A DNA stretch of 64,000 bases, taken from IMG/VR virus record IMGVR_UViG_3300010354_000079, positions 1 to 64,000 of that record. One strand, 5' to 3'. The stretch's first letter is position 1. Each line of letters begins with the position of its first letter. The notes beneath the pieces were generated by a model. The model was not told the origin of the DNA. It worked only from the letters and a program-made list of their open reading frames with translations, and made no database searches. Below, piece by piece: positions 1 through 20,789 of this stretch. Source of the DNA: a virus. A program made the translations under genes and the position numbers.

Positions 1-211
1 ACCAAGTGCAGCGGACTACGGTGCTTTCTGGTGCCGCAACAATAACACAATTATTATATCGTTCAATTACTGTACCCATTGGAAGTGTTTTTCCAATGGG
101 TGCTGTTTTAATATTGAAAGATTCAGTTGCTTCAAGTTGCTCTTGAAGCTTCCGAAGTTGAGATTGAGTGACCTCAATTTCTTTTTGCAGTTGTTGTTCG
201 GGGTCAATCAT
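1..211 (-). CDS. hypothetical protein, partial (continues beyond window start)
   Basis: minus-strand ORF with ATG at 209-211 (MIDPEQQLQKEIEVTQSQLRKLQEQLEA..., coiled-coil-like); no stop before the window edge; not in ORF track because partial. Confidence 0.3.
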   Translation of the reverse strand, partial: MIDPEQQLQKEIEVTQSQLRKLQEQLEATESFNIKTAPIGKTLPMGTVIERYNNCVIVAAPESTVVRCTW

Positions 212-1850: not shown

Positions 1851-2309
1851 TCAGTCAGGTTGCCGGGGGAAGGGTTGCGGGGTGGGGCGGCCGAAGCGGG
1901 TAATGGCTCGTTGCAGCAAGTCAAGAAGTTCGTCGTCCTCCGGACTCCTCCACATGGTTGGTGCAATGACAGTGCCCCAGGCTCTGTCTTGACGGAGCCA
2001 ATCCAAGACGTCTTCCTTCGTCGCCTTCGGCTCGATGGTGGGGCGGCCCCAGCGGGCGAGGGCTTCCTGAACAAGTTGAAGAAGTTGAAGACTTCCGCTC
2101 AGGTCACTGAGGCCCAGCTTATCGGCCAGTTGCATGATCTGGCGCCGCGTGGGCTCAGCCCCCAACGCCTCCGGCTGGGCCAGGGCGGCTTTCATTCGTT
2201 CGACAATAGGTCCCGCGTTCTCAGCAAAGTCTTCCGGGTTTGTAGTGCGACTCCAGCAAAAAGTCAGCTCAGCGCACAGAGCGCGGTAGTCGGTGGGGGT
2301 TCTTTCCAT
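1851..2309 (-). CDS. hypothetical protein (152 aa)
   Basis: ATG 6 nt after TATAGT of cassette E1 (gcgcTATAGTtacattATG). Confidence 0.55.
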   Translation of the reverse strand: MERTPTDYRALCAELTFCWSRTTNPEDFAENAGPIVERMKAALAQPEALGAEPTRRQIMQLADKLGLSDLSGSLQLLQLVQEALARWGRPTIEPKATKEDVLDWLRQDRAWGTVIAPTMWRSPEDDELLDLLQRAITRFGRPTPQPFPRQPD

Positions 2310-2390
2310 AATGTAACTATAGCGCTTTCAGCCCCCAGGGTAAAGGGGGGGGGGGTAAACCGCCCTTTAAGGGACGGTTAACCGCCTTGG
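2310..2390 (-). promoter_or_regulatory. cassette E1 (type B: two GGTWAACCGCC repeats + TTTACC -35 + TATAGT -10); contains 11-G tract
   Basis: minus strand: GGCGGTTAACC-N9-GGGCGGTTTACC(C)n-TTTACC-N17-TATAGT-N6-ATG. Confidence 0.55.
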
Positions 2391-3148
2391 GGCAGGTTAA
2401 AGTCCAGAGAGCAGAAGAGGATTTGCCGCCACCGTGAAATGAGCATCTCCGCGTAATCTCTTCGGGAAGGTGGATTGGATTGTGGATCTCGATTTTCATA
2501 GAGGCCGAGGGACCACCCATCATTGATCTCCACTAGCGAATACCCCCGTAAGTCTGACCTCCAACCGATGTCCACAGAGTAAGCACTCGGCCCAACCATT
2601 TCGTGCAAAAGTTTAGAAACTTCTCGAACCAAGAAATGGTCCGGTTCTGGATTATTAAAGTCCGTATCGTCATAGCGAGACCACCCAAGAACTTGAGGAC
2701 CGTTAACAAAGTCGTGTACGTAAAAGCGAAACTCGGACTCAAACCGCACAGGCTCACTGATCCAAACCAAAGTGTTTTCGGCAACAGAATCCGTTGAAGC
2801 CAAATCCTTTTTGATCGCTCCCGTAAATCGTTTGGTGCGCACAGGTTTCACAAACTCTTCATCCCCCGCTTCGGAAAGCATTCCACGCCGAATCTCGCGG
2901 GCCATGTAAGGCTCAAGGAAATCGTAGTGGAGTCCCTCTTCCGGAAGATTAATACCAATATGTTTGGCGTACTCCCGTGTGAACTCTACCGAGCCTACGG
3001 GAACATGCGAGAGCTTAAAGCATTTCGCATCGATTTCCGCAATTTCATCGAATGTTCTCGACACACAGGGATAGGGGGAGCAAACGCAAGCGAACTTTTC
3101 CGTATGCATAATGTCTCCTCTCTGAAGCAGAAAATGGAGTTCTTTCAC
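2378..3148 (-). CDS. ATP-grasp fold enzyme (putative)
   Basis: motifs FVKPVRTKRFTG (Lys in VKP), VWISEP, YSVDIGW...LVEINDGWSLG resemble ATP-grasp K / E-x-N signatures. Confidence 0.45.
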   Translation of the reverse strand: MKELHFLLQRGDIMHTEKFACVCSPYPCVSRTFDEIAEIDAKCFKLSHVPVGSVEFTREYAKHIGINLPEEGLHYDFLEPYMAREIRRGMLSEAGDEEFVKPVRTKRFTGAIKKDLASTDSVAENTLVWISEPVRFESEFRFYVHDFVNGPQVLGWSRYDDTDFNNPEPDHFLVREVSKLLHEMVGPSAYSVDIGWRSDLRGYSLVEINDGWSLGLYENRDPQSNPPSRRDYAEMLISRWRQILFCSLDFNLPQGG

Positions 3149-3149
3149 G

Positions 3150-3746
3150 TCACTCTGAGAGATTATGTTGAAGCATGTTACAGAAAATTACCCCTTGTTC
3201 AAGAGCATCTTGTTCAGCAATGTGGGAGTGCTTGACTTTTGCCGGAAACCAGTGTCTTGGGTAGTTTCTCTTTACCGACTCTCGATAACCCTTCTTTAGA
3301 AGGGCCATTGCATAGGTCTTTCCATCGAGAGCTGAAAAGCTGAATGGAGATTTACCCGTGAATCGAATGAGATACCAGTAAACAAAAAGGAAGTCAAATC
3401 CTGCAGGAAACCCTACGAAAACCGGATTTGCTTTCTTAGTCATTCCCTGGGGAGTGTACCGTGTCAAGACTTTTTCAGCCCACTCTGAAAACTGCTCCAT
3501 AGCTGCAGCTGGGTCAACTGGGTTTCTTCGGCACTGTTCGTAAGCGTCCCGATTCTCTTTTTGAGACCACCATTCCGAGGTTTTAGGATCGGGAGAGGAT
3601 TCGGGAAGAGGTTCTAAATTGACTGAAAAAGTTTCGAGAAGTGCCCCGTTTGATAGAAAGGCGGCACTTCCGAGAGAAAGCATACTGTTGGGACCGGGAA
3701 TGGGACCGTCGGTTTCAACATCCGTGCTAAAGTAGATTTCAGTCAT
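3150..3746 (-). CDS. DEDD-family 3'-5' exonuclease
   Basis: N-terminal [25 protein letters not shown] resembles the DnaQ/oligoribonuclease Exo I motif. Confidence 0.5.
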
Positions 3747-3827
3747 AGTCAGAAAAAGCTCCTAAGATAAACAGGGTTAGACCAAACAAAAGGAAAAACG
3801 CAGCGATCGTAAGCATAGGAAGACGGA

Positions 3828-4457
3828 TTAAACAATGAGAGAGTTAGGAATAAATTTCTGACTCCTCCAGTGCTTACCCGTCTGAACATGTCCCTCTCGA
3901 ACAAACTTCGCAACAGAGGTTCCGAAGTCGTCATAGTGGAAAGACTGGGCGTATCGAACTACATACCCTTCGACTTTTGTTGTGTCCAGGGAATTTGCGA
4001 TTTCCCGAATCTTCTTCTCGTTCCACTCTCCATTGTATAGGACAGGGACAGAGCAGATTCCCAGCATCGAGAAAAAGTCCTGGGTATCTTCCCAGGAAAG
4101 TGCACAGTTCCTTTCATCCCAAACGCTAAACCCGTAAAAATACGACTTCAGGTCTGAGTAGGAAATACTGTGACGAGCCCACAGATTCTCTCCGCAAATA
4201 CGCCAACCGACTGGAATCTCGTGACGAATCTGAGCCCAGAACTGTTTCACCCAGGCCCGGTCCTCTCCGCCTTTGCTATCGAGGCTGCGAGCATGGATGT
4301 GGTCGCTATACAAGGTTGTATTCTCTCCGTCCATTTTCTCGGTTACAACAACCGTGCGACCCACAAAACTTTGAACGCTCGAAAGGACTTTGTCGTCACT
4401 CGTGACTGCCTCCGACCAGGGCAGGTGGAAGGTTCGAGGGTATTTTACGTGAGCCAT
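3828..4457 (-). CDS. ATP-dependent RNA ligase (PF09414-like, small)
   Basis: KYPRTFHLPWS and EKMDGEN (KxDG nucleotidyltransferase motif I); start trimmed to MAHVKY because cassette E2 lies inside the ORF-track N-extension. Confidence 0.6.
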   Translation of the reverse strand: MAHVKYPRTFHLPWSEAVTSDDKVLSSVQSFVGRTVVVTEKMDGENTTLYSDHIHARSLDSKGGEDRAWVKQFWAQIRHEIPVGWRICGENLWARHSISYSDLKSYFYGFSVWDERNCALSWEDTQDFFSMLGICSVPVLYNGEWNEKKIREIANSLDTTKVEGYVVRYAQSFHYDDFGTSVAKFVREGHVQTGKHWRSQKFIPNSLIV

Positions 4458-4479
4458 CTCTCGAGCACCTGAACGTAAC

Positions 4480-4526
4480 CTACTATAGGGCCATCCCCGA
4501 AACGCGTAAAGGGCGGGTTCCCGCCC
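4480..4526 (-). promoter_or_regulatory. cassette E2 (type A palindrome GGGCGGGAACCCGCCC + TTTACG + TATAGT)
   Basis: TATAGT 24 nt upstream of RNA ligase ATG. Confidence 0.5.
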
Positions 4527-4608
4527 TCTCCAGGATCGCTCCAGGGGAGCCATCTGTTTTGGTAACCCATTGGGCCACCCCACCCGAGAGCCCGCCTTTC
4601 CGGACTCC

Positions 4609-6105
4609 CTAGGCCTGGCTGGGGAGGACCTCGAGAAACTCCCAACCGGCTCCCGGTGGGTCCCTAAACAGCTTTACCTCTTTCGTCGTAACGTTTCGAT
4701 ACGGGGAAGAAAGCTTCCAGTTTGAGTTGCTACAGTGCTCTAACCCTTTCCCTCTCTTGAACTCTCTCCACTCTGTTGAGACCCACATTTCCGGCCACAC
4801 ACCGCGCCATTCTTTGTGCCTCTTTCCCTTTTCCGGTAAATTCTCAATCGAGTACCGCATAAACTCCCGTCTACAATCTTCGCACTCAAGCTTTTCCAGA
4901 TATATCATGTTTTCTCGAGAGTAAAACACGAGCGAGATGCGTTCCGCATCCTCTGACATCTTAACCATTTCTGTGTTTCCATGAAGAAGAGTTTGAGTAT
5001 CGCCAGCGATGAAATCCCCATCCCGTAAATCAAAGGCGAGCCTTAACTCGGGAAAGACAAGGTAGTGTCCTTCGTAGTTACCTCTTGTCAAAGCTGTGAG
5101 AACGGCAAGAGCGCCTTTCAGGTTATTCTTGTCAACGTGGTAAGCAGTCCGAAAGTTAAAATTTAGGGTAATGCTTGTGAACGCAGTTCCGAACAAGTTG
5201 TAAGCGGGTTCCGAAACACGGGAAATAACGTCGCGAACGGATTGCCAGGTGAGTGGAAAAGTCTGACGAAAGCCTTCGCAAGCAGCAAAGTATATAGGCT
5301 GGTAAAGGGAGAAGCTATCGTAAAATTTCACGGTCGTCCCACTGAGTCGCCCGTAAGGAAATCTGCACCCTCGGTCTATGGCACCAAGAACATTGCTATA
5401 GCAATGGTTAAAGTTTAGCTGGATACTAATGAAGTTATCCATCGCGTCTTTCGTGGTTTGAACTTTGTTTTCCGATGGCAACCACTCGTTCTCAAGCCAG
5501 GGGTCAAACCATCCCCACAGAATCTTTCGCTTTCGAGAGATAAGATCTTTGCGATCTTCTTCCTGGAGGTCTTTCCTTTTAAGTTCTCGATCTACCTCTT
5601 TCAAAGTTTCTTTCACCTTAGGAAAAGCCTTCACAACTTGTTTCAGCTTTACCGTTTTGGTCGTGAGCTCGTCGGAACTATTTAGAACGTCTCTTGCTTG
5701 TTCCAGGGTTGTGAGTAACCCGGCACAAGACTGAGCAAAGAACGCAACCTGCCCCTTTGTCAGGCGAGCTTCAGGTCTTGTAGTAAACTCTGTTCCTGCG
5801 ACGACACCTCTCTGGGTTCCGTACACTTCACGAGAGGCTTTACGAAAGAACTCCCAAACGTCGGGTTGTTTCTCTCGTCCGTCTTTGAGTAAGGGAAACA
5901 AGGACTTTCGAAATGCCAGAACTTTTTTACCATCGACGAAAACGTCGCAATCCTCGCGAATGACCTCGTCGTAGTCTGACTCAGTGGGAAACTTGCCAAC
6001 ATATTCACTTTTAGAGCACAGTGCGAGTTCTTCTCGTGTTATCTTTCGTGGGTTGGTTCTTGAGCGCAAGTCTCTATCAATTTCTTCCCTAGTCTCTCTG
6101 TTCAT
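4609..6105 (-). CDS. TET/JBP-family 2OG-Fe(II) dioxygenase (nucleic-acid base hydroxylase)
   Basis: AYHVDKNN (HxD), LLHGNTE (distal His) and ERISLVFYSR; RISLVFY matches the 2OG-binding Arg segment I recall from human TET2 (HPTRISLVFYQHK). Confidence 0.6.
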   Translation of the reverse strand: MNRETREEIDRDLRSRTNPRKITREELALCSKSEYVGKFPTESDYDEVIREDCDVFVDGKKVLAFRKSLFPLLKDGREKQPDVWEFFRKASREVYGTQRGVVAGTEFTTRPEARLTKGQVAFFAQSCAGLLTTLEQARDVLNSSDELTTKTVKLKQVVKAFPKVKETLKEVDRELKRKDLQEEDRKDLISRKRKILWGWFDPWLENEWLPSENKVQTTKDAMDNFISIQLNFNHCYSNVLGAIDRGCRFPYGRLSGTTVKFYDSFSLYQPIYFAACEGFRQTFPLTWQSVRDVISRVSEPAYNLFGTAFTSITLNFNFRTAYHVDKNNLKGALAVLTALTRGNYEGHYLVFPELRLAFDLRDGDFIAGDTQTLLHGNTEMVKMSEDAERISLVFYSRENMIYLEKLECEDCRREFMRYSIENLPEKGKRHKEWRGVWPEMWVSTEWREFKRGKGLEHCSNSNWKLSSPYRNVTTKEVKLFRDPPGAGWEFLEVLPSQA

Positions 6106-6213
6106 ACAAGACTCTACAAACGAACGTATTATACAATTCCTGAAGAAAGTAAATCTAAATCTACAAAAAAAAAAGAGGCCGGATAAGCCCCTTTCCTACA
6201 GAATCTTCGAAAA

Positions 6214-6519
6214 CTATCGAACTCGCTTCACATGGTCCCAATGGGGGCTCTTCACAACGGAAGGTTTCACTTCAGGAGTCCGCTGAGCCGCTTTTCGAGC
6301 CCTAAGCATTTCCCACAAGGCTTGTTTCAGTTTCGGATCATCCGTTTTTTCGTACGCTTCCTGAAGCCGGGCAAATGCCTCGTCTCGGCGAGGAATGATA
6401 AGCCCATCCTTTTTTAGGGTAGTTGGAGAAATGTCAAGGGACTCACCTGCTTTCACTTTTGGACGACCAAAGTTTCCAGTGTGAACACCTTTTGTTCGAA
6501 GGCCATGATCATTAGCCAT
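6214..6519 (-). CDS. hypothetical protein (101 aa, basic)
   Basis: ORF track. Confidence 0.4.
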   Translation of the reverse strand: MANDHGLRTKGVHTGNFGRPKVKAGESLDISPTTLKKDGLIIPRRDEAFARLQEAYEKTDDPKLKQALWEMLRARKAAQRTPEVKPSVVKSPHWDHVKRVR

Positions 6520-6522
6520 TTT

Positions 6523-7116
6523 TCACTGCCGGTAGATGAACTTTTTGTCAAAGGCGGCTTTGGCAACCGTCTTCATCTTGAGCGCGATATCCAGATCCGG
6601 AACCAGGGTGATCGGATTATCCAGAAGCTGAGGGAGAATTGAAGGTGCTTTCTCCGTAACTTCTTGATCTTGAAAATGAACCCGGTATTCGGTGCCAATC
6701 TCTTCACAGATGGCGTTGATCGCCATGGCTTTTTCGATAAAGTTGGCGCCGTGGCCCTGAACTCCGTCATCAAGACCCTTGGTGTGAAGGTACTTGTGAA
6801 CCATCTCGTGAAGCAAAACGCTTCGGGTCGCGATCGGGTCGACCGCGATCTTTCGAGAAAGACGAATGGTCTTATCTTTGTAAGAGTAGACGCCGTAAGT
6901 CCTCTTACCAAGCCTTCCATCCCACTTCAGAGTTCCGTAAGAAGTTCGTACCTCACCGTTTTCGTCGGTAAAGGTGTGGGAAGGGAGGATAGGGAGTTCG
7001 CCGTTGAAAAAACGAGCGTTAAACTCTGCATACAGATCACCAAGGTCATACATCACCGTGGAATCCGGGCAGAAAGCTGTGAAAAAGGAATTCGAGAGTT
7101 GAGTTTTGAATTCCAC
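6523..7116 (-). CDS. SprT-like zinc metallopeptidase
   Basis: LLHEMVHKYLH (HExxH) and N-terminal FNARFFNGELP typical of the SprT family; GTG start. Confidence 0.55.
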   Translation of the reverse strand: MEFKTQLSNSFFTAFCPDSTVMYDLGDLYAEFNARFFNGELPILPSHTFTDENGEVRTSYGTLKWDGRLGKRTYGVYSYKDKTIRLSRKIAVDPIATRSVLLHEMVHKYLHTKGLDDGVQGHGANFIEKAMAINAICEEIGTEYRVHFQDQEVTEKAPSILPQLLDNPITLVPDLDIALKMKTVAKAAFDKKFIYRQ

Positions 7117-7151
7117 TTTTTCTAGGGGGGAAGCGGAGGTCGGTCACACCT

Positions 7152-7199
7152 TTACTATAGGTGTTACAGCGGAGTTCTGTAAAGGGCGGGTTCCCGCCC
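7152..7199 (-). promoter_or_regulatory. cassette E3 (type A)
   Basis: GGGCGGGAACCCGCCCTTTAC...TATAGT upstream of SprT-like gene. Confidence 0.5.
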
Positions 7200-7210
7200 T
7201 TCCCAAGAGG

Positions 7211-7393
7211 TCAGCCGAATTCGAAATAGACTTCCTCTACTCGATTCCAGCGAGTGATCGAAGGGCCAGAGTAGACGGTCACAGGCTCACGGAGAACTTC
7301 CGACAGTTCAAGAGCGGTGTCTCGAGCAACGTCCACCTGAGTGAAAGGACCCTCAGCGAAGGAGCATTCAGACGCGGTCCAGTAGAGAGACAT
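7211..7393 (-). CDS. hypothetical protein (60 aa)
   Basis: ATG 24 nt downstream of TATAGT of cassette E4; stop abuts cassette E3. Confidence 0.4.
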   Translation of the reverse strand: MSLYWTASECSFAEGPFTQVDVARDTALELSEVLREPVTVYSGPSITRWNRVEEVYFEFG

Positions 7394-7404
7394 GGCACCC
7401 GTTT

Positions 7405-7474
7405 CGAAGACCCCCTTACTATAGGGCTTATCGGAACGAAAACAAAGGGGGTAAACCGCCCTTTAAAAGTAGGG
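7405..7474 (-). promoter_or_regulatory. cassette E4 (type B)
   Basis: GGGCGGTTAACCC-N-GGGCGGTTTACCCCCTTTG...TATAGT. Confidence 0.5.
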
Positions 7475-8104
7475 TTAACCGCCCTGCTGGAGGGCGTTAA
7501 AGTTTTTCAGAATCTTTTGACACTCTTCTGCTATTTGTTCTTCCCTTTGGCAACCGTCCACTGAAACTCGATAAGAGGGTGCAGTTCGTTCGTACCCGTC
7601 GTATACCCTCTCAAGGAAAAACTTTCCTTCTGCCTCAAAACGGTCATAACTTTGAGATCTACTACGAGTTCTATGAATTGACTCGTCAACTGGAATGTCA
7701 AAAAAGAGCTCCAGGTCCGGGTCGGGAAAACTGAAGGAAGAGAGAAGGTCCCTTACCCGTTCGACTCCAATACCTCGAGCGTAGCCTTGGTAGGCTAAAG
7801 TGCTTGAGATATAACGGTCGCAAAGGACCCAGTATCCCTCACTTAGGAGAGGCTCAATATATTTAGATACGTGCTGTACGCGATCAGCCAAAAGGAGAAG
7901 AAGTTCTGCCTCAGGGTGCAAGGACTCTCTTGTACTCTTCAGAATGTCCCTCACAGTGGGGATAAACCCTGGCTCTCTTGTGCGAATAACTTGGGAGTTT
8001 TTAGAAACCAGCCCGCTCTCTGGGAGCCATTCTTTCAAGCGTTTCAGCTGCGTGCTCTTTCCACTTCCGTCTAAACCTTCGAAAGTGATAAACTTTCCTC
8101 TCAT
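7475..8104 (-). CDS. tmk: thymidylate kinase
   Basis: FITFEGLDGSGKSTQ P-loop and DRY..S lid region; ~209 aa. Confidence 0.85.
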   Translation of the reverse strand: MRGKFITFEGLDGSGKSTQLKRLKEWLPESGLVSKNSQVIRTREPGFIPTVRDILKSTRESLHPEAELLLLLADRVQHVSKYIEPLLSEGYWVLCDRYISSTLAYQGYARGIGVERVRDLLSSFSFPDPDLELFFDIPVDESIHRTRSRSQSYDRFEAEGKFFLERVYDGYERTAPSYRVSVDGCQREEQIAEECQKILKNFNALQQGG

Positions 8105-8223
8105 GGCGGCCTTCTCAGAATGACCGAATACAGTTCAGTATTCTGAAACACCTCTGAAGTTCGAGTTGAATACTTTGAGAATAATCAAAGAGTCCAGCCT
8201 CGTCGGCTCGGGAAATGTCCCTT

Positions 8224-8514
8224 TCAAGCGACATGGTCCGAATTTCTACCAGGTCCCGAATGAGAGACCAATCGGAGAGGCTCAGAAAGTTTTGCATCGT
8301 CGGTAGTTTCAGGTGGTTTAAGGGTAGTCTTTCCTTGAAGTTGTTCAACCATGAAAGATGCTACTCTTTCTTGGTGTTCTGGGCAAACATTTGGAAGGTG
8401 GTAACTCATTTCGGAGAGGATTGCCATTACCTCTTTTCTCTCCTCCCTTTCTCTTTCTTTAGGGGAATCCTCGTCGGGGAAAGGAACCATAATTGTAATG
8501 GGTTTCAGTTTCAT
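8224..8514 (-). CDS. hypothetical protein (96 aa)
   Basis: ATGA overlap with the HAD gene stop; the overlapping ORF 8115..8348 is less likely. Confidence 0.35.
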   Translation of the reverse strand: MKLKPITIMVPFPDEDSPKEREREERKEVMAILSEMSYHLPNVCPEHQERVASFMVEQLQGKTTLKPPETTDDAKLSEPLRLVSHSGPGRNSDHVA

Positions 8515-8900
8515 ACTCTAACACAGTAAATTCCAAAGCTTTGAACCAGCTGGCAATTTTCGGGTTTGTCGTCAAACCACATTAAGGGTTTTCCGTAGTC
8601 AGAACAAATGGTGTTTATATGGTCCAACTTCACTAGCCAATCTGGACGACCATCGTCATTCGGCCGCATATATACTTTCAACGGGTGGATACCCTTTTCT
8701 GCCAACCAAGAAACGGTGTCTTCTCGTAAGTATTCTGGACGAGCAGTGGAGATAATCAACGGGATCCCTGACTTACGAAAGCCGAGGGCCAGATTCACAA
8801 GTTCACGATTTTCTGTTAAGTTGGTAACAAAGTCGTCAACGTACTTCTGAGAAGTTAAGGTGAGGTCTACGTCAAAAACGATCGAAGGAATGGTTCTCAT
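8511..8900 (-). CDS. HAD-superfamily phosphatase (polynucleotide 3'-phosphatase-like or nucleotidase)
   Basis: FDVDLTLT (DxDxT motif I), IISTARPE (motif II), WFDDKPEN (motif IV). Confidence 0.5.
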   Translation of the reverse strand: MRTIPSIVFDVDLTLTSQKYVDDFVTNLTENRELVNLALGFRKSGIPLIISTARPEYLREDTVSWLAEKGIHPLKVYMRPNDDGRPDWLVKLDHINTICSDYGKPLMWFDDKPENCQLVQSFGIYCVRV

Positions 8901-8948
8901 TTTTTAAAGTGTGGGAATAGACCCTTGATACAGAGACCTATTATCGAA

Positions 8949-9131
8949 TCATGACTGGGGCCTTTGAGCCATAACCAACTGTGCTTGGTAGAGTTTCTGC
9001 TCTTTTTCGATGATCTTTCTAACCAAAGAGAGGGGGCTCAGCTTTAGGGCACTGTTACTGTTTGCTTGAGAATTCATGGTATTTTTGCAAAGGATATTTA
9101 TCGCGTTCCTTTGTCGCCTACTTCCGGTCAC
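8949..9131 (-). CDS. hypothetical protein (60 aa)
   Basis: ORF track; ATGA overlap. Confidence 0.3.
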   Translation of the reverse strand: MTGSRRQRNAINILCKNTMNSQANSNSALKLSPLSLVRKIIEKEQKLYQAQLVMAQRPQS

Positions 9132-9373
9132 TTTTCGTAACCTGAACGATTGTTGTGGAGTTTGTTGAGGAGGAGGAAACCTCCGTACTTAGAGAACACC
9201 TCCACAGGTGCCCACTCGCTCCAATACTTTGAGGAAAGAAACCAAAGATCTCCCCTCTTATACACTCTCCCTACATATTCCCCGCTGCGAGAGCAATGGT
9301 AAACAACGAGATTTGGAAAGTTTTGAGAAATTCGAAGTGGGGAGAGGTACGGCACAGGAATCGAGTGGTTCAT
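9128..9373 (-). CDS. hypothetical protein (81 aa)
   Basis: ORF track; ATG overlaps TAA of upstream small gene (TAATG). Confidence 0.4.
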   Translation of the reverse strand: MNHSIPVPYLSPLRISQNFPNLVVYHCSRSGEYVGRVYKRGDLWFLSSKYWSEWAPVEVFSKYGGFLLLNKLHNNRSGYEK

Positions 9374-9540
9374 TATACCCGTTTTTTAAGAAAGTAAACC
9401 CTATTGAGACTTTTTGTGCGAGAGACGAGGCAATCTCTGCGAGCTTTCGCTTGCTGGATAGCTCTCGGTTTGGATTTTCCTTTTTGCTTACGACCCTTCT
9501 CTCGAGGGCCGAGTTTGCAGCGAGTCGAGTCGTTTTCCAT
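9373..9540 (-). CDS. small highly basic protein (55 aa, MENDSTRCKLGPREKGRKQKGKSKPRAIQQAKARRDCLVSRTKSLNRVYFLKKRV)
   Basis: ATG 6 nt after TATGAT of cassette E5; stop overlaps next start by 1 nt; below the 60-aa ORF-track cutoff; replaces spurious 9258..9551. Confidence 0.45.
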   Translation of the reverse strand: MENDSTRCKLGPREKGRKQKGKSKPRAIQQAKARRDCLVSRTKSLNRVYFLKKRV

Positions 9541-9544
9541 GCAC

Positions 9545-9591
9545 CTATCATACCTGGTTACAGCAGGTGGGTAAAGGGCGGGTTACCGCCC
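9545..9591 (-). promoter_or_regulatory. cassette E5 (type A; -10 TATGAT, ATG +6)
   Basis: GGGCGGTAACCCGCCCTTTACccacctgctgtaaccaggTATGATaggtgcATG. Confidence 0.55.
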
Positions 9592-9597
9592 TAGGCT

Positions 9598-9864
9598 TTA
9601 GGGGCACGGACCAGAGAGAAACACACCGGATAGGTTGAGAGAGAAGCCAAGGGCAATCACTAGAACTACGTCCCACTGTTTTTGACGAATAAAGAATGGA
9701 AAGTTCAAAAGACTTCCGAAGAGAAGAATGATTAACCCTAGCTGGCGATTTCCGAACAGAACAAGGTACTGACCAGGAAACATACAAAAGTTTCCCAACA
9801 CACGAGCGTTGCTACTCAGAGTAGACATGTGTCTGAAGAATGACACCAACCTGTTTAAGTTCAT
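9598..9864 (-). CDS. hydrophobic membrane protein
   Basis: ORF track (TTG-ATG start); hydrophobic segments; stop overlaps cassette E5. Confidence 0.4.
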   Translation of the reverse strand: MNLNRLVSFFRHMSTLSSNARVLGNFCMFPGQYLVLFGNRQLGLIILLFGSLLNFPFFIRQKQWDVVLVIALGFSLNLSGVFLSGPCP

Positions 9865-9911
9865 CAAGATGTTTTTTGCCCCAGGGAATGTGGCACCAAA
9901 TTACCTTCTTG

Positions 9912-10829
9912 TCATTGGTTAGCAGTTGCACTGCTACTTTTTTCATGGTCGGATCGAGAGAGAGCCTGTAGAATTTTACCTAGCCTCTTCGGCTTCAGGA
10001 AGGACTTAAACTCGAGACCTTCAAACAAAGCAGTCACAACCTCGGTCTCAGGGTTCGAGGAAGCAAACCACGACAGATCAGGGATGTCGTTCTCGAGTGT
10101 CACTAGACGGTAATTACCCGTGAATGTTTCAGAGTGGTTCGAGACTTTGGAATGAAAAAGGATCCGGTCGTAAAGGGTCATCAGAGGGTCAAAAGTTTTA
10201 GCCTTCGACTCGTTTACAATCTTGGCTGCCGTCTTTGGCCCTATCCCAGGAATACCTTTCACATTGTCAGAAGCGTCTCCTGCCAAAGACTTGATAAAGC
10301 GGATCTCGTCCGGTTCCACTCCGTAATCCTCTCGCACCATGTTTTGGTCAAACAGGACCATTTTCTTAGCGGAGTTAAAGAGTAGAACCTTGACTCGGGG
10401 CGTGACCAACTGTAAGAGGTCTCGATCACATGTGAGTATGTGAACTTCCGTAAATGCCCGAGAATTTCTGGAAATATGCGCGATAATGTCGTCGGCTTCG
10501 AAACCCTCTTTACCAACCGGAGTGAACCCGAGAGCCGGAAGAACGTCCTCAACAAGAAGGCTCATGTCCGCAATATGCTCCATGCTCAGCTTGTTTCGGT
10601 TCGCCTTATACTCTGAGCCTTCCCTTTTACGGAAATTTCCCCCTTTATCGCAGCAAGGGACAATGCAGTCATATTTATACTTATCTGTCACAGAGAAAAG
10701 TGCATTGCAGAAACCATAGGTTCCTGTCACAGGTACTCCAAAACTCGTTGTCATTTCTCCCATAGCTCGTGTGAGGGCGGAGCGAGAGCGGTGAAAAAGA
10801 GCGGAAGTATCGACTAGGAGGAGTTTCAT
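9912..10829 (-). CDS. 5'-3' exonuclease / flap endonuclease (RNase H/FEN family)
   Basis: LLVDTSALFHR (PIN-like), GFEADDIIA, TCDRDLLQLV, SDNVKGIPGIGPKTAAKIV (H3TH). Confidence 0.8.
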   Translation of the reverse strand: MKLLLVDTSALFHRSRSALTRAMGEMTTSFGVPVTGTYGFCNALFSVTDKYKYDCIVPCCDKGGNFRKREGSEYKANRNKLSMEHIADMSLLVEDVLPALGFTPVGKEGFEADDIIAHISRNSRAFTEVHILTCDRDLLQLVTPRVKVLLFNSAKKMVLFDQNMVREDYGVEPDEIRFIKSLAGDASDNVKGIPGIGPKTAAKIVNESKAKTFDPLMTLYDRILFHSKVSNHSETFTGNYRLVTLENDIPDLSWFASSNPETEVVTALFEGLEFKSFLKPKRLGKILQALSRSDHEKSSSATANQ

Positions 10830-11545
10830 GGTTTGTGAAAAAATTGCTTAAAGGTGTTCTGAGTGACGTTGTAGGCTGTTAGGCAGCCGTCCCTTTTACT
10901 GTAAGCTCCGGTATCAATGTTGACCCTATCTTCTTTAACAACTGGCTGCCTCTTCACTCCTCCGTCTTCAAAAAGGGTTGGAGTATGACCATGAACAACT
11001 TTTTTCAAGTTCGGGCTCCACTTATGGAACTCTGGCCCATGCTTCAGGAACGGCTCTCGCATCCATAGAAAAGATTCGGCACGATTTTCATCAATGGTCT
11101 TTTGAGGATCGTGTCCCGGGAAGATCCCCCCGTGAACGAATAGAACATCCCCAATCGTCATATAGATTGGGAGTTCCCGAATCCACTCGGTATGGAGACG
11201 CTTTATTTCCTCCATTTGATCGAAGTTTGCCCCGTTTTGAAGCCACTCCCCCATTCCCCAGTTAGGAGCCGTGACGTAGTCCAAGAACATCCTTTCATGG
11301 TTTCCCATGAGCGCATAAAATGCCTGAAGCCCCCAACCCTCGGAGTCTTCGAGGAGGTTACGAGTTTTCTCTAGGACGTTAAGGTCTTCTCCTCCTCGAT
11401 CTATCATATCCCCCAAAAGAACGACTGTGCAACCAGTGTCCTTCACCCACGCAAGAAACTTATCGTAAAGGGTTGCGGTTGCGTGAATATCCCCGAGGGC
11501 AATCACGTCCCCAGGGATTATGTCGTCATTAAATTTCACAGTCAT
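10826..11545 (-). CDS. calcineurin-like metallophosphatase (lambda PPase/ApaH-like)
   Basis: GDIHA, GDMIDRG, GNHE, VHGHT motifs. Confidence 0.7.
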   Translation of the reverse strand: MTVKFNDDIIPGDVIALGDIHATATLYDKFLAWVKDTGCTVVLLGDMIDRGGEDLNVLEKTRNLLEDSEGWGLQAFYALMGNHERMFLDYVTAPNWGMGEWLQNGANFDQMEEIKRLHTEWIRELPIYMTIGDVLFVHGGIFPGHDPQKTIDENRAESFLWMREPFLKHGPEFHKWSPNLKKVVHGHTPTLFEDGGVKRQPVVKEDRVNIDTGAYSKRDGCLTAYNVTQNTFKQFFHKP

Positions 11546-11548
11546 GTC

Positions 11549-12022
11549 TTAGTGCACAAAGCGAACTTTGGAAAAACCCTCGTTGTAGATGTTCTTTATG
11601 GACGCCTCAAGGCTGGCGTGCATCTTTTCAATCACGTATTCGGGAACAAACCGAGGACGGGATGCGTTCTGATTAAGGCAGACCTTCAAAGGCTTGTAAA
11701 CGACGACTGCCACAACTTCGTCGTAACCATAAGAAAGAAGCATCTGAAGAGCGTCCTTACGGTAACGAGACTTGTAGTGAGTGTTATCCAGAATGATCGT
11801 CTTACCGACGTTGTCCTCCAGGATCTCGATCATACGATCGTGAATTTCGGAGTAGTTGCCCTGGATGTTTGGGTCGCCGTACAGCTCCTCGCGAATCGTG
11901 TCGCCGTTGATGATCACGGATCCCGGGATTTCCTTGTGGAGCTGGTTTGCCCAGGTGGACTTTCCGGAACCAGGGGCACCGACCATCATGTAGGCTTTCA
12001 TTGGAGAGGTTTTCTCGTTCAT
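11549..12022 (-). CDS. P-loop kinase, polynucleotide-kinase-like (possible 5'-OH kinase or hmU-DNA kinase)
   Basis: MMVGAPGSGKSTWA Walker A; start trimmed to MNEKTS, 6 nt after TATAAT of cassette E6. Confidence 0.55.
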   Translation of the reverse strand: MNEKTSPMKAYMMVGAPGSGKSTWANQLHKEIPGSVIINGDTIREELYGDPNIQGNYSEIHDRMIEILEDNVGKTIILDNTHYKSRYRKDALQMLLSYGYDEVVAVVVYKPLKVCLNQNASRPRFVPEYVIEKMHASLEASIKNIYNEGFSKVRFVH

Positions 12023-12026
12023 ACCC

Positions 12027-12094
12027 TTATTATAGCGCCAGCGCCTCCCTGAACAGGGCGGCAAACCGGCCACCCAAAGGGTGGGTTACCGCCC
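12027..12094 (-). promoter_or_regulatory. cassette E6 (type B variant; -10 TATAAT, ATG +6)
   Basis: GGGCGGTAACCCACCC...GGCCGGTTTGCCGCCC...TATAATaagggtATG. Confidence 0.5.
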
Positions 12095-12310
12095 TCAGCT
12101 GTTGCAGAAGAAGTGGTATTCCTCCAACCATTCTTGCAGAGGGTCGTCATTTATGACTTCCCCACTGTTTTCGACGTAGTCGCGAACCACCCACGCTTTC
12201 TCAGAGAACTCTCTCTCACTCCATGGGGGTTGTTGATCACCAATGGATAGACCTGATTTTCCGCGAGTTAAACGGAAAAGTTTTTTCTGAATGCGTAGAG
12301 GGTCTTTCAT
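12095..12310 (-). CDS. hypothetical protein (71 aa)
   Basis: ORF track; stop abuts cassette E6. Confidence 0.4.
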   Translation of the reverse strand: MKDPLRIQKKLFRLTRGKSGLSIGDQQPPWSEREFSEKAWVVRDYVENSGEVINDDPLQEWLEEYHFFCNS

Positions 12311-12316
12311 TTGGGG

Positions 12317-12586
12317 TTAGCCTTTATCCGGAACAGGAAAAAATTCTTCGGGAGTCGTGTACTTCTCGATCAAGTCGGTGTACCCCGCGTTTAGGACCGA
12401 TTGGAGAAGGTCTTGATCCTCTAAGTTTTCCAGAAAGTCTTTCAAATGAAGGGAATATACACGTAGTAGTTCACTAACGGGAGTGTTGTTAATGACTCTG
12501 GAAACTACTTCGTTCTCAAACTCTTTGCGATTTTCCATAGACATGTTCTTAGTTTCAGTTTGGTTCTTAGTTGTTGGGATCAGCAT
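12317..12586 (-). CDS. hypothetical protein (89 aa)
   Basis: ORF track. Confidence 0.4.
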   Translation of the reverse strand: MLIPTTKNQTETKNMSMENRKEFENEVVSRVINNTPVSELLRVYSLHLKDFLENLEDQDLLQSVLNAGYTDLIEKYTTPEEFFPVPDKG

Positions 12587-12604
12587 CTGGGAAGTTACCT
12601 GCTA

Positions 12605-13516
12605 TTACTTCGATTTCTTTCCTTTCTCGCATTTGTTAAACTTAAATCTAGGAAAGAACTTCTTACGTAAGCGATACTTACATTTTCTTCTCAGCAGAAG
12701 AGAGAGAATGTCCCAGCACCAGCGTCTTTTCGTATTCTTTCTGATTACTAAAACTTTTTCTCCTTCGAGGCCAAACTTGGGTGTGGTTCGTCCTTTCCAG
12801 TTCAAGCCGATTCCGGGCTTACTTTCTAGGTGAATGACCGGAACTTCCGGCAAAAGCTCTCTTTTGTCCCTCGGCCACTTTTTAGCGTGAAGGACATCGG
12901 TTCGATCCGCGAAACCGTGTTGATCTGGGTATTCGTAGACCCCTGACCCCTTTGGGTTCCATAGCTGAAAATAACCGATCGGTTCATACCCGCCATGGTA
13001 GTTTTTGTACTCAGCCAACCGCACCCCTACCGGGAAACTATCTAAGTGAATAAATATCCAGGAATCTTGTAACGGAGGAGTAGTGTCCAGAAAGTTCAAC
13101 CACTCTCTGTACCCAGGGCACATTAACCTATCTGCCCCATAGAGTTTTTGCGGGTCTAACGGAAGATTTTCAAGGATGTCTCGAGTTAAAGGGGGCAGGT
13201 ATATATCTGAGTCTAGGTGAAGAACCCACCCATCGAGACTCAATCTTTTCAAACCTTCGTTGATACCTTTTCCTTTGTTAAAGGCATCTCCCCCTTCGTA
13301 GAAAACGTCTGTCTGAACACATTCTACGTTATAAAAATCGCAGCACTTTTTGGTTTCTGCGTCTTTCGTGTCAGTCACTACGACTAACTTGTTGAACTGG
13401 TTTCTTACGCTTGGTAAAGTGTGCCTTAGGAAGTCTGAGTAGTTCACGCACACGATAACGGCTTCAAGCTTCATCTTCAAGGTGAGGGGTCGTTTAACTA
13501 AGTTTACCCTCATCAC
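12605..13516 (-). CDS. GT-A fold glycosyltransferase (putative)
   Basis: N-terminal AVIVCVNYSDFL...LVVVTDTKD and HLDSDIY (DxD-like) resemble family-2-type GTs; basic C-tail. Confidence 0.4.
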   Translation of the reverse strand: MMRVNLVKRPLTLKMKLEAVIVCVNYSDFLRHTLPSVRNQFNKLVVVTDTKDAETKKCCDFYNVECVQTDVFYEGGDAFNKGKGINEGLKRLSLDGWVLHLDSDIYLPPLTRDILENLPLDPQKLYGADRLMCPGYREWLNFLDTTPPLQDSWIFIHLDSFPVGVRLAEYKNYHGGYEPIGYFQLWNPKGSGVYEYPDQHGFADRTDVLHAKKWPRDKRELLPEVPVIHLESKPGIGLNWKGRTTPKFGLEGEKVLVIRKNTKRRWCWDILSLLLRRKCKYRLRKKFFPRFKFNKCEKGKKSK

Positions 13517-13520
13517 TTGT

Positions 13521-13682
13521 TTAGCTTTTTAGACGAAGCCAGCTTCGAAGAGTCGCAAATTGACGAATCTTCTCTCGAACTTCTGCTGAATCTTCCAGCT
13601 CACAAGAATCCTGAAGTTGTTGAAGATAGTTGTCAATGGCTTCAAGGGCCATGTCGTGATCTTGTCGCGAGAGCAGGCTCAT
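13521..13682 (-). CDS. hypothetical small protein (53 aa)
   Basis: ATG overlaps stop of 13679..14974 (ATGA); not in ORF track (<60 aa). Confidence 0.35.
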   Translation of the reverse strand: MSLLSRQDHDMALEAIDNYLQQLQDSCELEDSAEVREKIRQFATLRSWLRLKS

Positions 13683-14974
13683 TGGTAGCCCCTCGGGGTA
13701 TTAAACTTTCTCACTCGAACCTCGTTCAATCCCGCCATCGGCCTCTCTTGGCTTGGAAGTCCTGAAGTGAAGACGTCTGTGATCTGCCAAAGAAAGTGCT
13801 CATCCATCTCCTTCAAAGATTGAGAAACGGGTCGAATCGAAACTCCCTGATTCTTATCAACTTCCTTTAAAAGGTCTGACACAAATTCTTCAAGTGAAGT
13901 GTCGGTTCCGGTTTTAGGGAGCCCTACAATCAAGCTGCGGGAATCTCCTTTTCGCTCTAGAAGTTCTTCCAAGAGGGATTTGGAGCCTCTCTTCAAGTCT
14001 TCAACAGAAACTTTAACTTCAGGCTCGATTCGGGTGGAATAAACTCCTCTGTTGCTAGCTTTTCTTCGGACAAGATCTACGGACCCTCTCACCCCTTTGC
14101 GGAAACTTCGGAAAAGAATCTCTGACTCTGTGAATAGGCTCTTGAAGGGGTTGTAGCCAAGGGACTTACAGAAGTATAAATCGGAAAAAGAGTCCGAGGG
14201 GCTCAAAGTTTGAATTTCCCAAGTCACTTGGGCGAGAATGTTCTTAACCTCGTGAAAGCCTATCGAAGAGAAACCATTTGAAATGGTAAAATCCCATGAG
14301 GCCATCCAGCTTAGAAAGCCGGGGGAGTAGGATCCATCTTCTTTTTGAAGACCGTTATAGGCCCTCAAGTGGCTGTGTTCTCCACTGGCCAGTTCTTGAA
14401 TCGAACTCGGTTTGGTCTCTTTTCCGAAAGCGTCCTTGTAGTAGTAAAGGTCCGCGGTGATTACATCGATTGCTTCCACCTTTTCCCGAAGTTTGTCTTC
14501 GAGAACCTTTCGTTCCTTGGGAAATCGGCCGTAGTTTGTGTAGTCTCGAAGCAAGATAAGCCTGGACTTAAGTTCCTGGGGAGTTAAAGAGTCAACCCAC
14601 CTCCAGAACTGAAGGACTTTTCTCCAGTTGGCACCGAGAACGAGCCAGGGTTCTTTGAGCACTATTCCCGGATTTTCACTTGAAAAGTCATTGAATCTTC
14701 GAAGAAGGATGGCGTGAATGGTACTTGTCCCGAGTGTCTTCGCTGCGAAAGTGTCTAGAGACTCAGGGTAAGCATCCCCCGTTTCAAAAACCCTTCCGGA
14801 GAAGAGCCCTGAAGAAAAAGCCTTAAAGTCGAATTTCCCCATACTCAAAGCGTCCATTACTACGACACTCTGAGCACAGGGATTGCAGTCTCGGTCAAGA
14901 GCGGCGCCCTTTGAAGGTCTTTTCTCAACCGATTCCCACTTTTGGTATAGCTTATTGATTAGCTTTTTGTTCAT
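13679..14974 (-). CDS. hypothetical protein (431 aa)
   Basis: ORF track; contains GLPKTGT P-loop-like segment; no confident family. Confidence 0.45.
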   Translation of the reverse strand: MNKKLINKLYQKWESVEKRPSKGAALDRDCNPCAQSVVVMDALSMGKFDFKAFSSGLFSGRVFETGDAYPESLDTFAAKTLGTSTIHAILLRRFNDFSSENPGIVLKEPWLVLGANWRKVLQFWRWVDSLTPQELKSRLILLRDYTNYGRFPKERKVLEDKLREKVEAIDVITADLYYYKDAFGKETKPSSIQELASGEHSHLRAYNGLQKEDGSYSPGFLSWMASWDFTISNGFSSIGFHEVKNILAQVTWEIQTLSPSDSFSDLYFCKSLGYNPFKSLFTESEILFRSFRKGVRGSVDLVRRKASNRGVYSTRIEPEVKVSVEDLKRGSKSLLEELLERKGDSRSLIVGLPKTGTDTSLEEFVSDLLKEVDKNQGVSIRPVSQSLKEMDEHFLWQITDVFTSGLPSQERPMAGLNEVRVRKFNTPRGYQ

Positions 14975-14992
14975 ACCTTCTTAATTAGTTTA

Positions 14993-15082
14993 TAGGCGCC
15001 TAGGGAATCGAACCCTAACTAGCCGGTAATCTGCCGGAGCGGTCCTTATAGGGGACCCTGTGCTACCTTACACCAGACGCCC
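14993..15082 (-). tRNA. atypical type-II tRNA-like gene (anticodon loop CCUAUAA)
   Basis: 7-bp acceptor stem GGGCGUC/GGCGCCU (2 G-U), D-arm GUGU-AAGGUA-GCAC, anticodon stem GGUCC/GGACC, long variable hairpin CCGG-CAGAUUA-CCGG, T-arm UAGGG-UUCGAUU-CCCUA; two nt between D and anticodon stems and C at position 33 are non-canonical. Confidence 0.45.
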
Positions 15083-15108
15083 AAATCAAAGGGCCAAAAG
15101 GCCCTCAA

Positions 15109-20110: not shown

Positions 20111-20159
20111 TCTGCAGTCTAGGGCACTGACCTAAGCTTAGGGTTAAGCTGATATGAAC

Positions 20160-20272
20160 GGAACCGGCAGGACTCGAACCTGCAACCTCTCCTTTAACCT
20201 AGGGATTTGTACTGCTGATGTATCTTTGACAAGATAGCTTTATAGCGCTCTATCCAGTTGAGCTACGGTTCC
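20160..20272 (-). ncRNA. elongated tRNA-like gene f (~113 nt)
   Basis: acceptor GGAACCG/CGGUUCC, D-arm GCUC-AACUGGAUA-GAGC, T-arm GCAGG-UUCGAGU-CCUGC, with ~45-nt insert containing hairpin UAUCUU-GUCA-AAGAUA and CAGCAG. Confidence 0.5.
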
Positions 20273-20303
20273 AATTGTGATCTGATCTTTCGCTAAGCGA
20301 AAA

Positions 20304-20430
20304 GTCGAAGGGGCAAGATTCGAACTTGCGTATGGCGGTCCCTTTAGCGTATAGTTAATTGCTGAATCATCACTTAACTCGATGATCTTTTTTGCATTAC
20401 CGCTGCCTAACCACTTGGCTACCCTTCGTC
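20304..20430 (-). ncRNA. elongated tRNA-like gene e (~127 nt); anticodon-stem GCGGU/ACCGC brackets a 59-nt segment beginning AAUGCAA
   Basis: acceptor CGAAGGG/CCCUUCG, D-arm GCC-AAGUGGUUA-GGC, T-arm GCAAG-UUCGAAU-CUUGC; insert contains hairpin GAUCAUC...GAUGAUU and CAGCAA. Confidence 0.5.
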
Positions 20431-20435
20431 GGTTT

Positions 20436-20527
20436 TCAAGATGAGTTTTATGCTGGACTTGAACCAGCTAGCACCGGGTGTTTAACACCCGTGCATTATC
20501 CGTTTGTTGGCGGCTGCCTCATCTTTT
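20436..20527 (-). ncRNA. stem-closed structured RNA module d
   Basis: terminal stem AAGAUGAG/CUCAUCUU enclosing CAGCC, hairpin GCACGGGUG-UUAAA-CACCCGGUGC and T-arm-like GCUGG-UUCAAGU-CCAGC. Confidence 0.4.
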
Positions 20528-20546
20528 TCTTTGTTTTGCAAAGAAC

Positions 20547-20663
20547 GCCAAAATCAGGAATCGAACCTGAGCTACCTCCTGAACATGGATTATTGGAGAT
20601 TGCTGTCCGGACCTTATACAAGGTCACCGATTTTTAAGCGTGCTACCACTACACTATTTTGGC
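20547..20663 (-). ncRNA. elongated tRNA-like gene c (~117 nt)
   Basis: perfect acceptor GCCAAAA/UUUUGGC, U8A9, D-arm GUGU-AGUGGUA-GCAC, T-arm UCAGG-UUCGAUU-CCUGA; insert has hairpin GACCUU-GUAU-AAGGUC then GGUCCGGACAGCAA. Confidence 0.5.
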
Positions 20664-20681
20664 TTTAACTTGAGTTAAACA

Positions 20682-20766
20682 AGATGAGTTTGTTATTTTT
20701 GCAAGCGCAAAAGGTTGGAATCGAACCAACAGTATCCAGTTTAGGATGTTGCTGCCTCATCTTTGA
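20682..20766 (-). ncRNA. stem-closed structured RNA module b
   Basis: terminal stem CAAAGAUGAG/CUCAUCUUG enclosing CAGCAA, AUCC-UAAACU-GGAU hairpin and T-arm-like GUUGG-UUCGAUU-CCAAC. Confidence 0.4.
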
Positions 20767-20789
20767 TGAAATTTCCGTCTAACGGAAAT

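Follow-up and report, generated by a model that had tools for sequence, protein, structure and literature searches.

The window analysed here is a 64,000-nucleotide stretch of viral DNA, positions 1 to 64,000 of IMG/VR virus record IMGVR_UViG_3300010354_000079. At 4609..6105 on its minus strand lies a gene for a TET/JBP-family Fe(II)/2-oxoglutarate (2OG) dioxygenase, that is, a 5-methylpyrimidine dioxygenase, of a long-form phage subfamily that we name clade I. The existence of the open reading frame (ORF) was confirmed; it starts with ATG and encodes 498 amino acids. A preliminary description of this DNA had taken the gene for a TET/JBP dioxygenase and proposed a Pfam search as a check, which the protein passes: Tet_JBP (PF12851) matches residues 280-398 at 67.6 bits, with a gathering cutoff of 34.9. 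The motifs quoted in that description are all in place, namely AYHVDKNN (H323 and D325), LLHGNTE (H375) and ERISLVFYSR (R389, S391 and R397). H323, D325 and H375 are unchanged in 41/41 aligned homologues and R397 is nearly so; in a wider alignment the same three residues occur in 91/91 sequences and the full H-D-H-R-S-R set in 78/91, the window protein among them.

A profile built from the family reaches human TET2 in the PDB (E=4e-6), with the HxD regions pairing up and the profile segment 'aeRislVfYsre' aligned with 'TRISLVFYQH' of TET2, so that R389 and S391 fall on the TET2 RxS. The preliminary description was therefore right to equate the RISLVFY segment with that of TET2. The family profile was needed for this match, as a phmmer search of the PDB with the single window sequence gave no significant hit. 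An alignment-based AlphaFold2 model of the enzyme (pLDDT 94.2, pTM 0.88) has the predicted fold of a double-stranded beta-helix and is nearest to solved TET structures, more specifically TET2, NgTET1 and CcTet, all of which are 5-methylcytosine (5mC) dioxygenases. We read the model as a TET core with a subfamily-specific insertion at about residues 130-230 that is predicted to be helical; a C-terminal extension of ~100 amino acids follows the core. In both the window protein and its homologues, Pfam recognises a single domain, Tet_JBP, and an SNF2 domain is absent. The homologues in the cultured phages S-CBWM1 (gp8), DLP6 (AAY80_030) and Cr30 (AGS81014) carry the database label 'SNF2 DNA repair protein'. 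Because Tet_JBP is the only Pfam domain detected, we regard this label as misleading and as carried over from JBP2. A megablast search with window positions 2000..14000 found no match among 50,697 phage records. We conclude that 4609..6105 does encode a DNA dioxygenase of the TET/JBP type, and that it belongs to a large cyanophage.

The subfamily is phage-specific and about 440-510 amino acids in length. A database search returned 90 homologues of the window TET, nearly all of 440-530 amino acids and all carrying PF12851 except one fragment, and relatives in IMG/VR number more than 500. We counted gene neighbourhoods at 88 loci that carry the long-form TET subfamily, scoring AADT (PF18724, amino acid:DNA transferase) and TAGT (PF20691, a JGT-like TET-associated glycosyltransferase) within 10 kb and scanning for C5-cytosine methyltransferases (C5-MTs) with a motif heuristic. 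AADT is present at 46 of these loci, a 5-hydroxymethyluracil (5hmU)-kinase-type P-loop kinase (Ploopntkinase3) at 43, GATase at 39 and TAGT at 24; about 12 have neither AADT nor TAGT, and the C5-MT motif was found in 0/88. Pfam annotation of 278 neighbour proteins from 29 dereplicated loci gave a similar picture, with AADT (16), GATase_6 (13) and Ploopntkinase3 (11) ranking top and TAGT found four times; no DNA methylase was among the top neighbour families of these loci. DNA replication genes are also among the family-wide neighbours.

Close relatives of the window share a gene order that runs Pnkp-type kinase, metallophosphoesterase, FEN, HAD, an optional Tmk, SprT, TET in one or two copies, an exonuclease-like gene, an R2K-clade ATP-grasp gene and finally a variable cassette. 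One type of cassette consists of GATase_6, a 318-amino-acid protein, AADT, sometimes a GT4, and Ploopntkinase3. The other consists of TAGT, a HAD protein, a nucleotidyltransferase and an APH-like kinase, and is found in two metagenomic relatives (loci L008 and L036) and in the cultured phage S-CBWM1. TETs that are 57-65% identical to the window enzyme share one gene string with AADT cassettes, as does the second TET of locus L007 (60% identical), and L036 carries, in one unbroken string, a TAGT cassette within ~2 kb of a TET orthologue that is 64% identical to the window enzyme. The family also includes a sub-clade in which the 2OG-anchoring Arg of RxS is replaced by Asn, Ser or Cys and HxD...H is kept (L187 8469-9968; L015 14741-16183; P0043-P0083). 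In the contigs examined, these Arg-less variants are second paralogs alongside a canonical copy.

A candidate decorating cassette was found beyond the edge of the window, on an overlapping contig that probably belongs to the same phage. The window begins 18 nt from the end of its own 90.6-kb ENA contig, the last 141 nt of which are the first 141 nt of the 136-kb record IMGVR_UViG_3300010354_000047, with 123 nt of the overlap inside the window. The 5' part of an ORF that runs off the contig end (1..211, minus strand) joins the two. Across the junction this ORF is intact, encoding 155 amino acids collinear with a 163-amino-acid tandem paralog (51% identity); GC content is equal on both sides (0.48-0.49), and gene order over the join continues as in L008, with synteny to L036 as well. 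The tandem pair itself (window 1-211; L013 45-875) is coiled at the N-terminus and conserved at the C-terminus (...CRQRFSS..YWSST...RAFRRIVF), and it falls exactly at an assembly break common to two independent assemblies.

At 20.4-24.6 kb of the continuation contig, ~25-26 kb downstream of the window TET and on the same strand, lies a second TET paralog (TET-2) together with a cassette. TET-2 (positions 8469-9968 in locus record L187 of this contig) is 36% identical to the window enzyme, matches Tet_JBP at 59 bits and carries 'DAENLVLVFYSRD', in which Asn replaces the 2OG-anchoring Arg. Immediately after it comes TAGT (L187 9965-10831; PF20691 50.4 bits; PTYGR, LSLDDDV and NEDME as the GT-A R...DDD...ED motifs) and then a HAD phosphatase, an NTP_transf_3 sugar nucleotidyltransferase and an APH-like kinase. 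The TAGT cassette and TET-2 are real candidate partners of the window TET, located outside the window. A 171-amino-acid protein upstream of TET-2 was considered as a partner specific to Arg-less paralogs and was set aside, as L008 has a homologue yet only one, canonical TET. By tblastn, AADT, GATase, Ploopntkinase3, the 318-amino-acid protein and TAGT gave no match in the window or over the adjoining 10.9 kb; this initial stretch of the continuation contig holds no modification cassette, and the contig was not among the matches of an AADT pattern scan across IMG/VR. The preliminary description had suggested searching the rest of the genome for methyltransferases or aGPT-Pplase (AADT) homologues. 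None were found in the regions scanned, and the TAGT cassette and TET-2 turned up instead.

The continuation contig also carries a photosystem II reaction-centre gene of psbA/psbD type (L187 71-1069, corresponding to 12017-13015 of the IMG/VR contig; Photo_RC 302 bits). The window contains a cyanobacterial-type permuted tmRNA at 51198-51462 on the minus strand (Rfam cyano_tmRNA 76 bits, tmRNA_permuted 82 bits), the tag peptide of which is given by ARAGORN as ANKIVKFERTAVAV*. Because of these two genes, we take the host to be cyanobacterial.

Within the window, the following genes, all on the minus strand, surround the TET:

2378..3148, minus strand: R2K-clade ATP-grasp enzyme (Pfam R2K_2 79 bits, R2K_3 73 bits)
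3150..3746, minus strand: DEDD-type exonuclease-like protein (weak Rv2179c-like PF16473 match, 23 bits, below cutoff)
3828..4583, minus strand: RNA ligase (PF09414, 116 bits), directly downstream of the window TET
6523..7116, minus strand: SprT-like metalloprotease (Pfam 48.8 bits), an upstream TET neighbour kept by synteny in close relatives
7475..8104, minus strand: thymidylate kinase, tmk (Pfam Thymidylate_kin 134.6 bits)
10826..11545, minus strand: metallophosphoesterase (Pfam Metallophos 53.9 bits; PHROG_246 138 bits)
11549..12073, minus strand: Pnkp-type polynucleotide 5'-kinase (AAA_33 74 bits), called as 150 amino acids at 11549..12001
12605..13516, minus strand: GT-A/GT2-like glycosyltransferase (Glycos_transf_2 24.8 bits, marginal to the cutoff of 23.3; HLDSDI as DxD motif)

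The preliminary description had assembled the glycosyltransferase, the kinase, the ATP-grasp enzyme and tmk into a base hypermodification pathway with the TET. All four genes exist, and it is their membership in such a pathway that did not hold. The kinase had been likened to 5hmU DNA kinases. In the PDB it comes closest to the kinase domain of Clostridium thermocellum Pnkp (E 5e-13), with Pnkp1 and T4 PNK next; it matches the PHROG 'polynucleotide kinase' family and also Zeta_toxin, and it has no match to the Ploopntkinase3 or 5hmU DNA kinase (5-HMUDK) profiles. Relatives that run the 5hmU-kinase pathway encode a separate Ploopntkinase3 beside the Pnkp-type kinase. The pairing of the kinase with the metallophosphoesterase at 10826..11545 recurs in every close relative, whatever the modification cassette. 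Given the Pnkp match, this pairing and the lack of AADT in the window or joined contig scans, we reject 11549..12073 as a 5hmU DNA kinase and regard it as an end-healing kinase; the metallophosphoesterase is likewise rejected as a pathway member, as the two form an end-healing pair. They belong to an unusually rich RNA end-repair set in the window that includes three RNA ligases (3828-4583, 27515-28600 and 35675-36829) of three different kinds (PF09414; PHA02142-OB plus RNA_ligase; T4 Rnl1-like), while the further loci 8511-8900, 10826-12073, 25532-26266 and 33488-34213 contribute the Pnkp-type kinase, three metallophosphoesterases and a HAD_PNKP phosphatase. RNA ligases, kinase, phosphoesterases and HAD_PNKP make up an end-healing and sealing set with no base-modification step. 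The thymidylate kinase is an ordinary one, consistent with canonical dTTP supply and not diagnostic of a modification pathway.

The glycosyltransferase at 12605..13516 fared no better as the decorating enzyme. It shows no similarity to TAGT (BLASTP E 5.2) and has no PHROG or PDB match. At 56-80% identity it has more than 1100 metagenomic homologues, as compared with the 90 that the same database yielded for the TET; no homologue was found in the 50,697 cultured phage records, S-CBWM1 included, and the gene is absent from 88/88 TET loci. One homologue sits in a contig of 430 kb, where none of the genes up to 8 kb away from it is a TET. For these reasons, we do not consider it a partner of the TET. 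Its C-terminal tail is strongly basic (RRKCKYRLRKKFFPRFKFNKCEKGKKSK). The R2K ATP-grasp gene sits between the TET gene or genes and the decorating cassette in six close relatives (L008 and L036 among them); it occurs at just 10/88 TET loci, is missing from S-CBWM1, DLP6 and Cr30, and has homologues in cultured phages without a match to the long-form TET family. It is thus a syntenic neighbour in close relatives and was rejected as a family-wide partner. The exonuclease-like gene lies between the TET and R2K, and L008 and L036 have orthologues of it (67-68% identical) in the equivalent place; together with R2K it is absent from distant TET-bearing phages. No RNA ligase occupies the position equivalent to 3828..4583 in the five close relatives compared (L002, L007, L008, L014 and L036).

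Conversion of thymine to 5hmU is most likely the reaction of the window TET. We favour thymine because the neighbours of the subfamily are thymidine-hypermodification genes or TAGT and because no C5-MT was found. The substrate of both AADT and 5-HMUDK is 5hmU within DNA, and TET_JBP-linked clusters without a dUMP hydroxymethylase have earlier been interpreted as converting T to 5hmU (PMC8989533). Phage 5mYOX enzymes that have no adjacent C5-MT and whose linked genes are GATase, P-loop kinase and AADT have proved by experiment to be T-dioxygenases (PMC13229309), while phage 5mC dioxygenases adjoin their C5-MT (PMC8256090; PMC13229309). An adjacent cognate C5-MT is the mark of 5mYOX clades A and B, and the window TET has none. 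No DNA methyltransferase was matched by Pfam among window ORFs of at least 200 amino acids, scanning the window for C5-MT motifs gave nothing, and no C5-MT was found in the 10.9 kb past the window or within 10 kb on either side of the TAGT cassette. The preliminary description had seen no DNA methyltransferase in the window and had named thymine hydroxylation or reliance on host methylation as the options that this would favour; the absence is confirmed by these scans, and of the two options thymine is supported, by the family linkage and the 0/88 count.

We consider it fairly likely that the window TET is active and converts thymine to 5hmU, and that the 5hmU is probably glycosylated by TAGT to a base-J-like base that shields the phage DNA. 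On this explanation, the window TET, possibly with TET-2, would hydroxylate the C5-methyl group of thymine in replicated phage DNA to give 5hmU. The APH-like sugar kinase, the nucleotidyltransferase and the HAD phosphatase would supply a nucleoside diphosphate sugar, with which the JGT-like TAGT would glycosylate 5hmU. The resulting base-J-like glycosyl-5hmU may then protect the phage DNA against host nucleases. Glycosylation of the TET product, anticipated in the preliminary description, is therefore probable, via the cassette outside the window. The data show the family, fold and catalytic residues of the window enzyme, the gene linkage across the family and the occurrence of the TAGT cassette on the overlapping contig; the choice of thymine over 5mC, the identity of the sugar, the action of TAGT on the product of the window enzyme and the protective role are what we infer.

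Several points weigh against this explanation. The C5-MT searches covered ~96 kb of a genome of ~227 kb or more, and a distant C5-MT is possible. Phage JGT-like GT-A enzymes can glycosylate 5hmC too (bioRxiv 10.1101/2023.12.21.572611), and because of this the TAGT link alone does not separate thymine from 5mC. Some ParB-less clade C1 phage 5mYOXs were inactive on both T and 5mC in E. coli assays (PMC13229309). The two contigs stem from different assemblies, and what joins them is a 141-nt overlap at an assembly break within a tandem-paralog pair. The TAGT cassette adjoins TET-2 and not the window TET, and may serve only TET-2. Finally, the chemistry of the long-form subfamily is predicted, from sequences, models and gene neighbourhoods.

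It is possible, albeit unlikely, that the window TET and the Arg-less, TAGT-linked TET-2 constitute a two-hydroxylase system, in which the two would cooperate as a heteromer or split contexts or oxidation states between them to yield base-J-like thymine, the helical insertion replacing the ParB activator. We find it rather unlikely that the window TET acts alone and leaves 5hmU, or 5-formyluracil or 5-carboxyuracil, at specific contexts as the final mark, with TAGT reserved for TET-2 or with the window copy redundant or decaying. The distance of ~25 kb from any decorating cassette in this phage, the ~12 of 88 family loci without AADT or TAGT nearby and the sequence selectivity and capacity for iterative oxidation of phage T-dioxygenases (PMC13229309) would all fit such a solitary role. 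However, the window copy retains every catalytic residue and it is the cassette-adjacent paralog that has Asn for the 2OG-anchoring Arg; moreover, the 64% orthologue in L036 is strung together with a TAGT cassette, and 5hmU once in DNA would be accessible to TAGT in the same cell wherever the hydroxylase gene sits. There is a slim chance that the enzyme is instead a 5mC dioxygenase that acts on 5mC made by a host or unlinked phage methyltransferase, the 5hmC being glycosylated by TAGT. The closest solved structures (TET2, NgTET1 and CcTet) are 5mC dioxygenases, characterised pathways include glycosylation of 5hmC by JGT-like GT-A enzymes of phages (bioRxiv 10.1101/2023.12.21.572611), characterised phage T-dioxygenases oxidise 5mC as well in vitro (PMC13229309), and much of the genome lies outside the ~96 kb searched for a C5-MT. 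Such a role is at odds with the lack of a C5-MT in the 64-kb window, the 10.9 kb beyond, the 10 kb on either side of the TAGT cassette and the 88 loci, when characterised phage 5mC dioxygenases have theirs adjacent (PMC8256090; PMC13229309), and with orthologues of the window TET that are linked to AADT/5-HMUDK-type cassettes requiring 5hmU.

The pathway of the preliminary description, in which the TET product would be processed by the glycosyltransferase at 12605..13516, the kinase at 11549..12073 as a 5hmU DNA kinase, R2K and tmk, now appears quite improbable. These genes all lie on the same strand within 8 kb of the TET, the glycosyltransferase, with its DxD motif and basic tail, narrowly passes the GT2 cutoff, and R2K always stands between TET and decorating cassette in close relatives. 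But the kinase resembles Pnkp/PNK rather than Ploopntkinase, is paired with a metallophosphoesterase with RNA ligases nearby, and coexists with a separate Ploopntkinase3 in the relatives that use a 5hmU kinase; the glycosyltransferase has more than 1100 homologues to the 90 of the TET, occurs at 0/88 TET loci and is missing from S-CBWM1 and all cultured phages searched; and R2K is lacking in S-CBWM1, DLP6 and Cr30 and present in phages with no long-form TET match. Least probable of all, in our view, is an action of the window TET on RNA, for example on 5-methyluridine or 5-methylcytidine in tRNA, as part of an RNA repair or modification arsenal. The immediate neighbours here, an RNA ligase and an exoribonuclease-like protein, and the three RNA ligases, Pnkp-type kinase, phosphoesterases, tRNAs and tmRNA held by the window would suit that role, yet the relatives examined have no RNA ligase at this position, the family-wide neighbours are DNA-base modifiers (AADT, 5-HMUDK-type kinase and TAGT) and DNA replication genes, and all characterised phage TET/JBP members act on DNA.

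Thymine hydroxylation followed by TAGT glycosylation, the explanation that we favour, can be set beside several known systems. The phage T-dioxygenases (5mYOX C1/C2, O'Toole et al. PNAS 2026, PMC13229309; TET89, Burke et al. 2021, PMC8256090) have PF12851 and HxD...H...RxS in common with the window TET, as well as the lack of an adjacent C5-MT and an inferred post-replicative T to 5hmU chemistry. The linkage of the subfamily to GATase, P-loop kinase and AADT is that of clade C1, and its glycosyltransferase linkage is that of clade C2 (PMC13229309). A ParB-dependent subclass of 5mYOX has a ParB-like activator gene nearby; for the window TET, no ParB match was found in the scanned window ORFs or in the top neighbour families of 29 TET loci, nor was a ParB-like fold found in the enzyme itself. 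With no ParB nearby, the window TET, if a T-dioxygenase, would be of the ParB-independent kind.

The trypanosomatid base J pathway, with the JBP1 and JBP2 thymidine hydroxylases and the glucosyltransferase JGT, likewise combines two paralogous TET/JBP hydroxylases with a JGT-like GT-A enzyme, and its product is the predicted one here, glycosyl-5hmU. The phage system differs from it in having neither a JBP1-type J-binding domain nor a JBP2-type SNF2 domain and in encoding its own sugar-activation genes, and its role would be anti-restriction and not transcription control. A cultured counterpart is the Synechococcus phage S-CBWM1, a cyanomyovirus of 139 kb, in which gp8 is 46% identical to the window TET over 92% of its length (TMq 0.87) and gp9-gp12 (TAGT, HAD, nucleotidyltransferase and APH-like kinase) share 41-57% identity with the cassette of the continuation contig. 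S-CBWM1 has one TET directly adjoining its cassette, whereas the present phage would have two paralogs ~25 kb apart, with the cassette beside the divergent one. A literature search for DNA modification in S-CBWM1 found nothing relevant. With respect to the AADT (aGPT-Pplase)/5-HMUDK clusters (Lee et al., NAR 2021, PMC8989533), sister phages with 57-65% TET orthologues carry AADT, Ploopntkinase3, GATase and the ~318-amino-acid protein just downstream. Neither the window nor the next 10.9 kb nor, by pattern scan, the 136-kb contig contains an AADT, kinase or GATase of this kind; the present phage probably has a TAGT cassette instead.

Other features of the window are as follows:

14992-15083, 61053-61126 and 63498-63588: listed positions of tRNAs for Ile (tat, 92 nt), Arg (cct) and Ser (gct)
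20159-20904, minus strand: three successive long (114-118 nt) tRNA-like Rfam matches that are not called by ARAGORN and may be intron-containing tRNAs
40856-43270, minus strand: NAMPT-like nicotinamide phosphoribosyltransferase beside a PRPP synthetase, an NAD+ salvage pair
54657-55256, minus strand: elongation factor Ts homologue (EF_TS 101 bits)
43630-45200 (minus strand), 52245-53144 and 56146-59219: an SLH-domain protein beside a DPBB lytic transglycosylase; a papain-like peptidase; and a 647-amino-acid subtilase followed by an AAA ATPase

NAD+ salvage pairs of such a kind have been linked to countering NAD-depleting defences.

Phage TET/JBP T-dioxygenases and TAGT and AADT cassettes have already been described. 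Undescribed in the literature cited here are the long-form architecture, the frequent two-paralog arrangement, which includes Arg-less second copies, and the exchange of cassettes around a shared backbone among cyanophage-like jumbo phages. It was only recently (2021-2026) that phage TET/JBP enzymes were shown to oxidise thymine after replication, and the enzymes characterised to date are short forms from metaviromes. The present locus puts the long-form subfamily in large freshwater or estuarine cyanophages, and closely related phages share one hydroxylase backbone with interchangeable cassettes, for amino-acid transfer in some and glycosylation in others. One practical lesson is that the candidate partner genes lay past an assembly break, the point at which the window stopped.

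S-CBWM1 is in culture and carries the same TET-TAGT cassette, and the prediction is thus directly testable. If it is confirmed, cyanophage DNA with base-J-like or amino-acid-modified thymines would affect restriction and CRISPR evasion in cyanobacteria, and environmental virome sequencing may be biased. Moreover, if the two-hydroxylase arrangement proves true, base-J-type DNA would be described in cyanophages for the first time, and the regulatory architecture would be a new one among TET/JBP enzymes.

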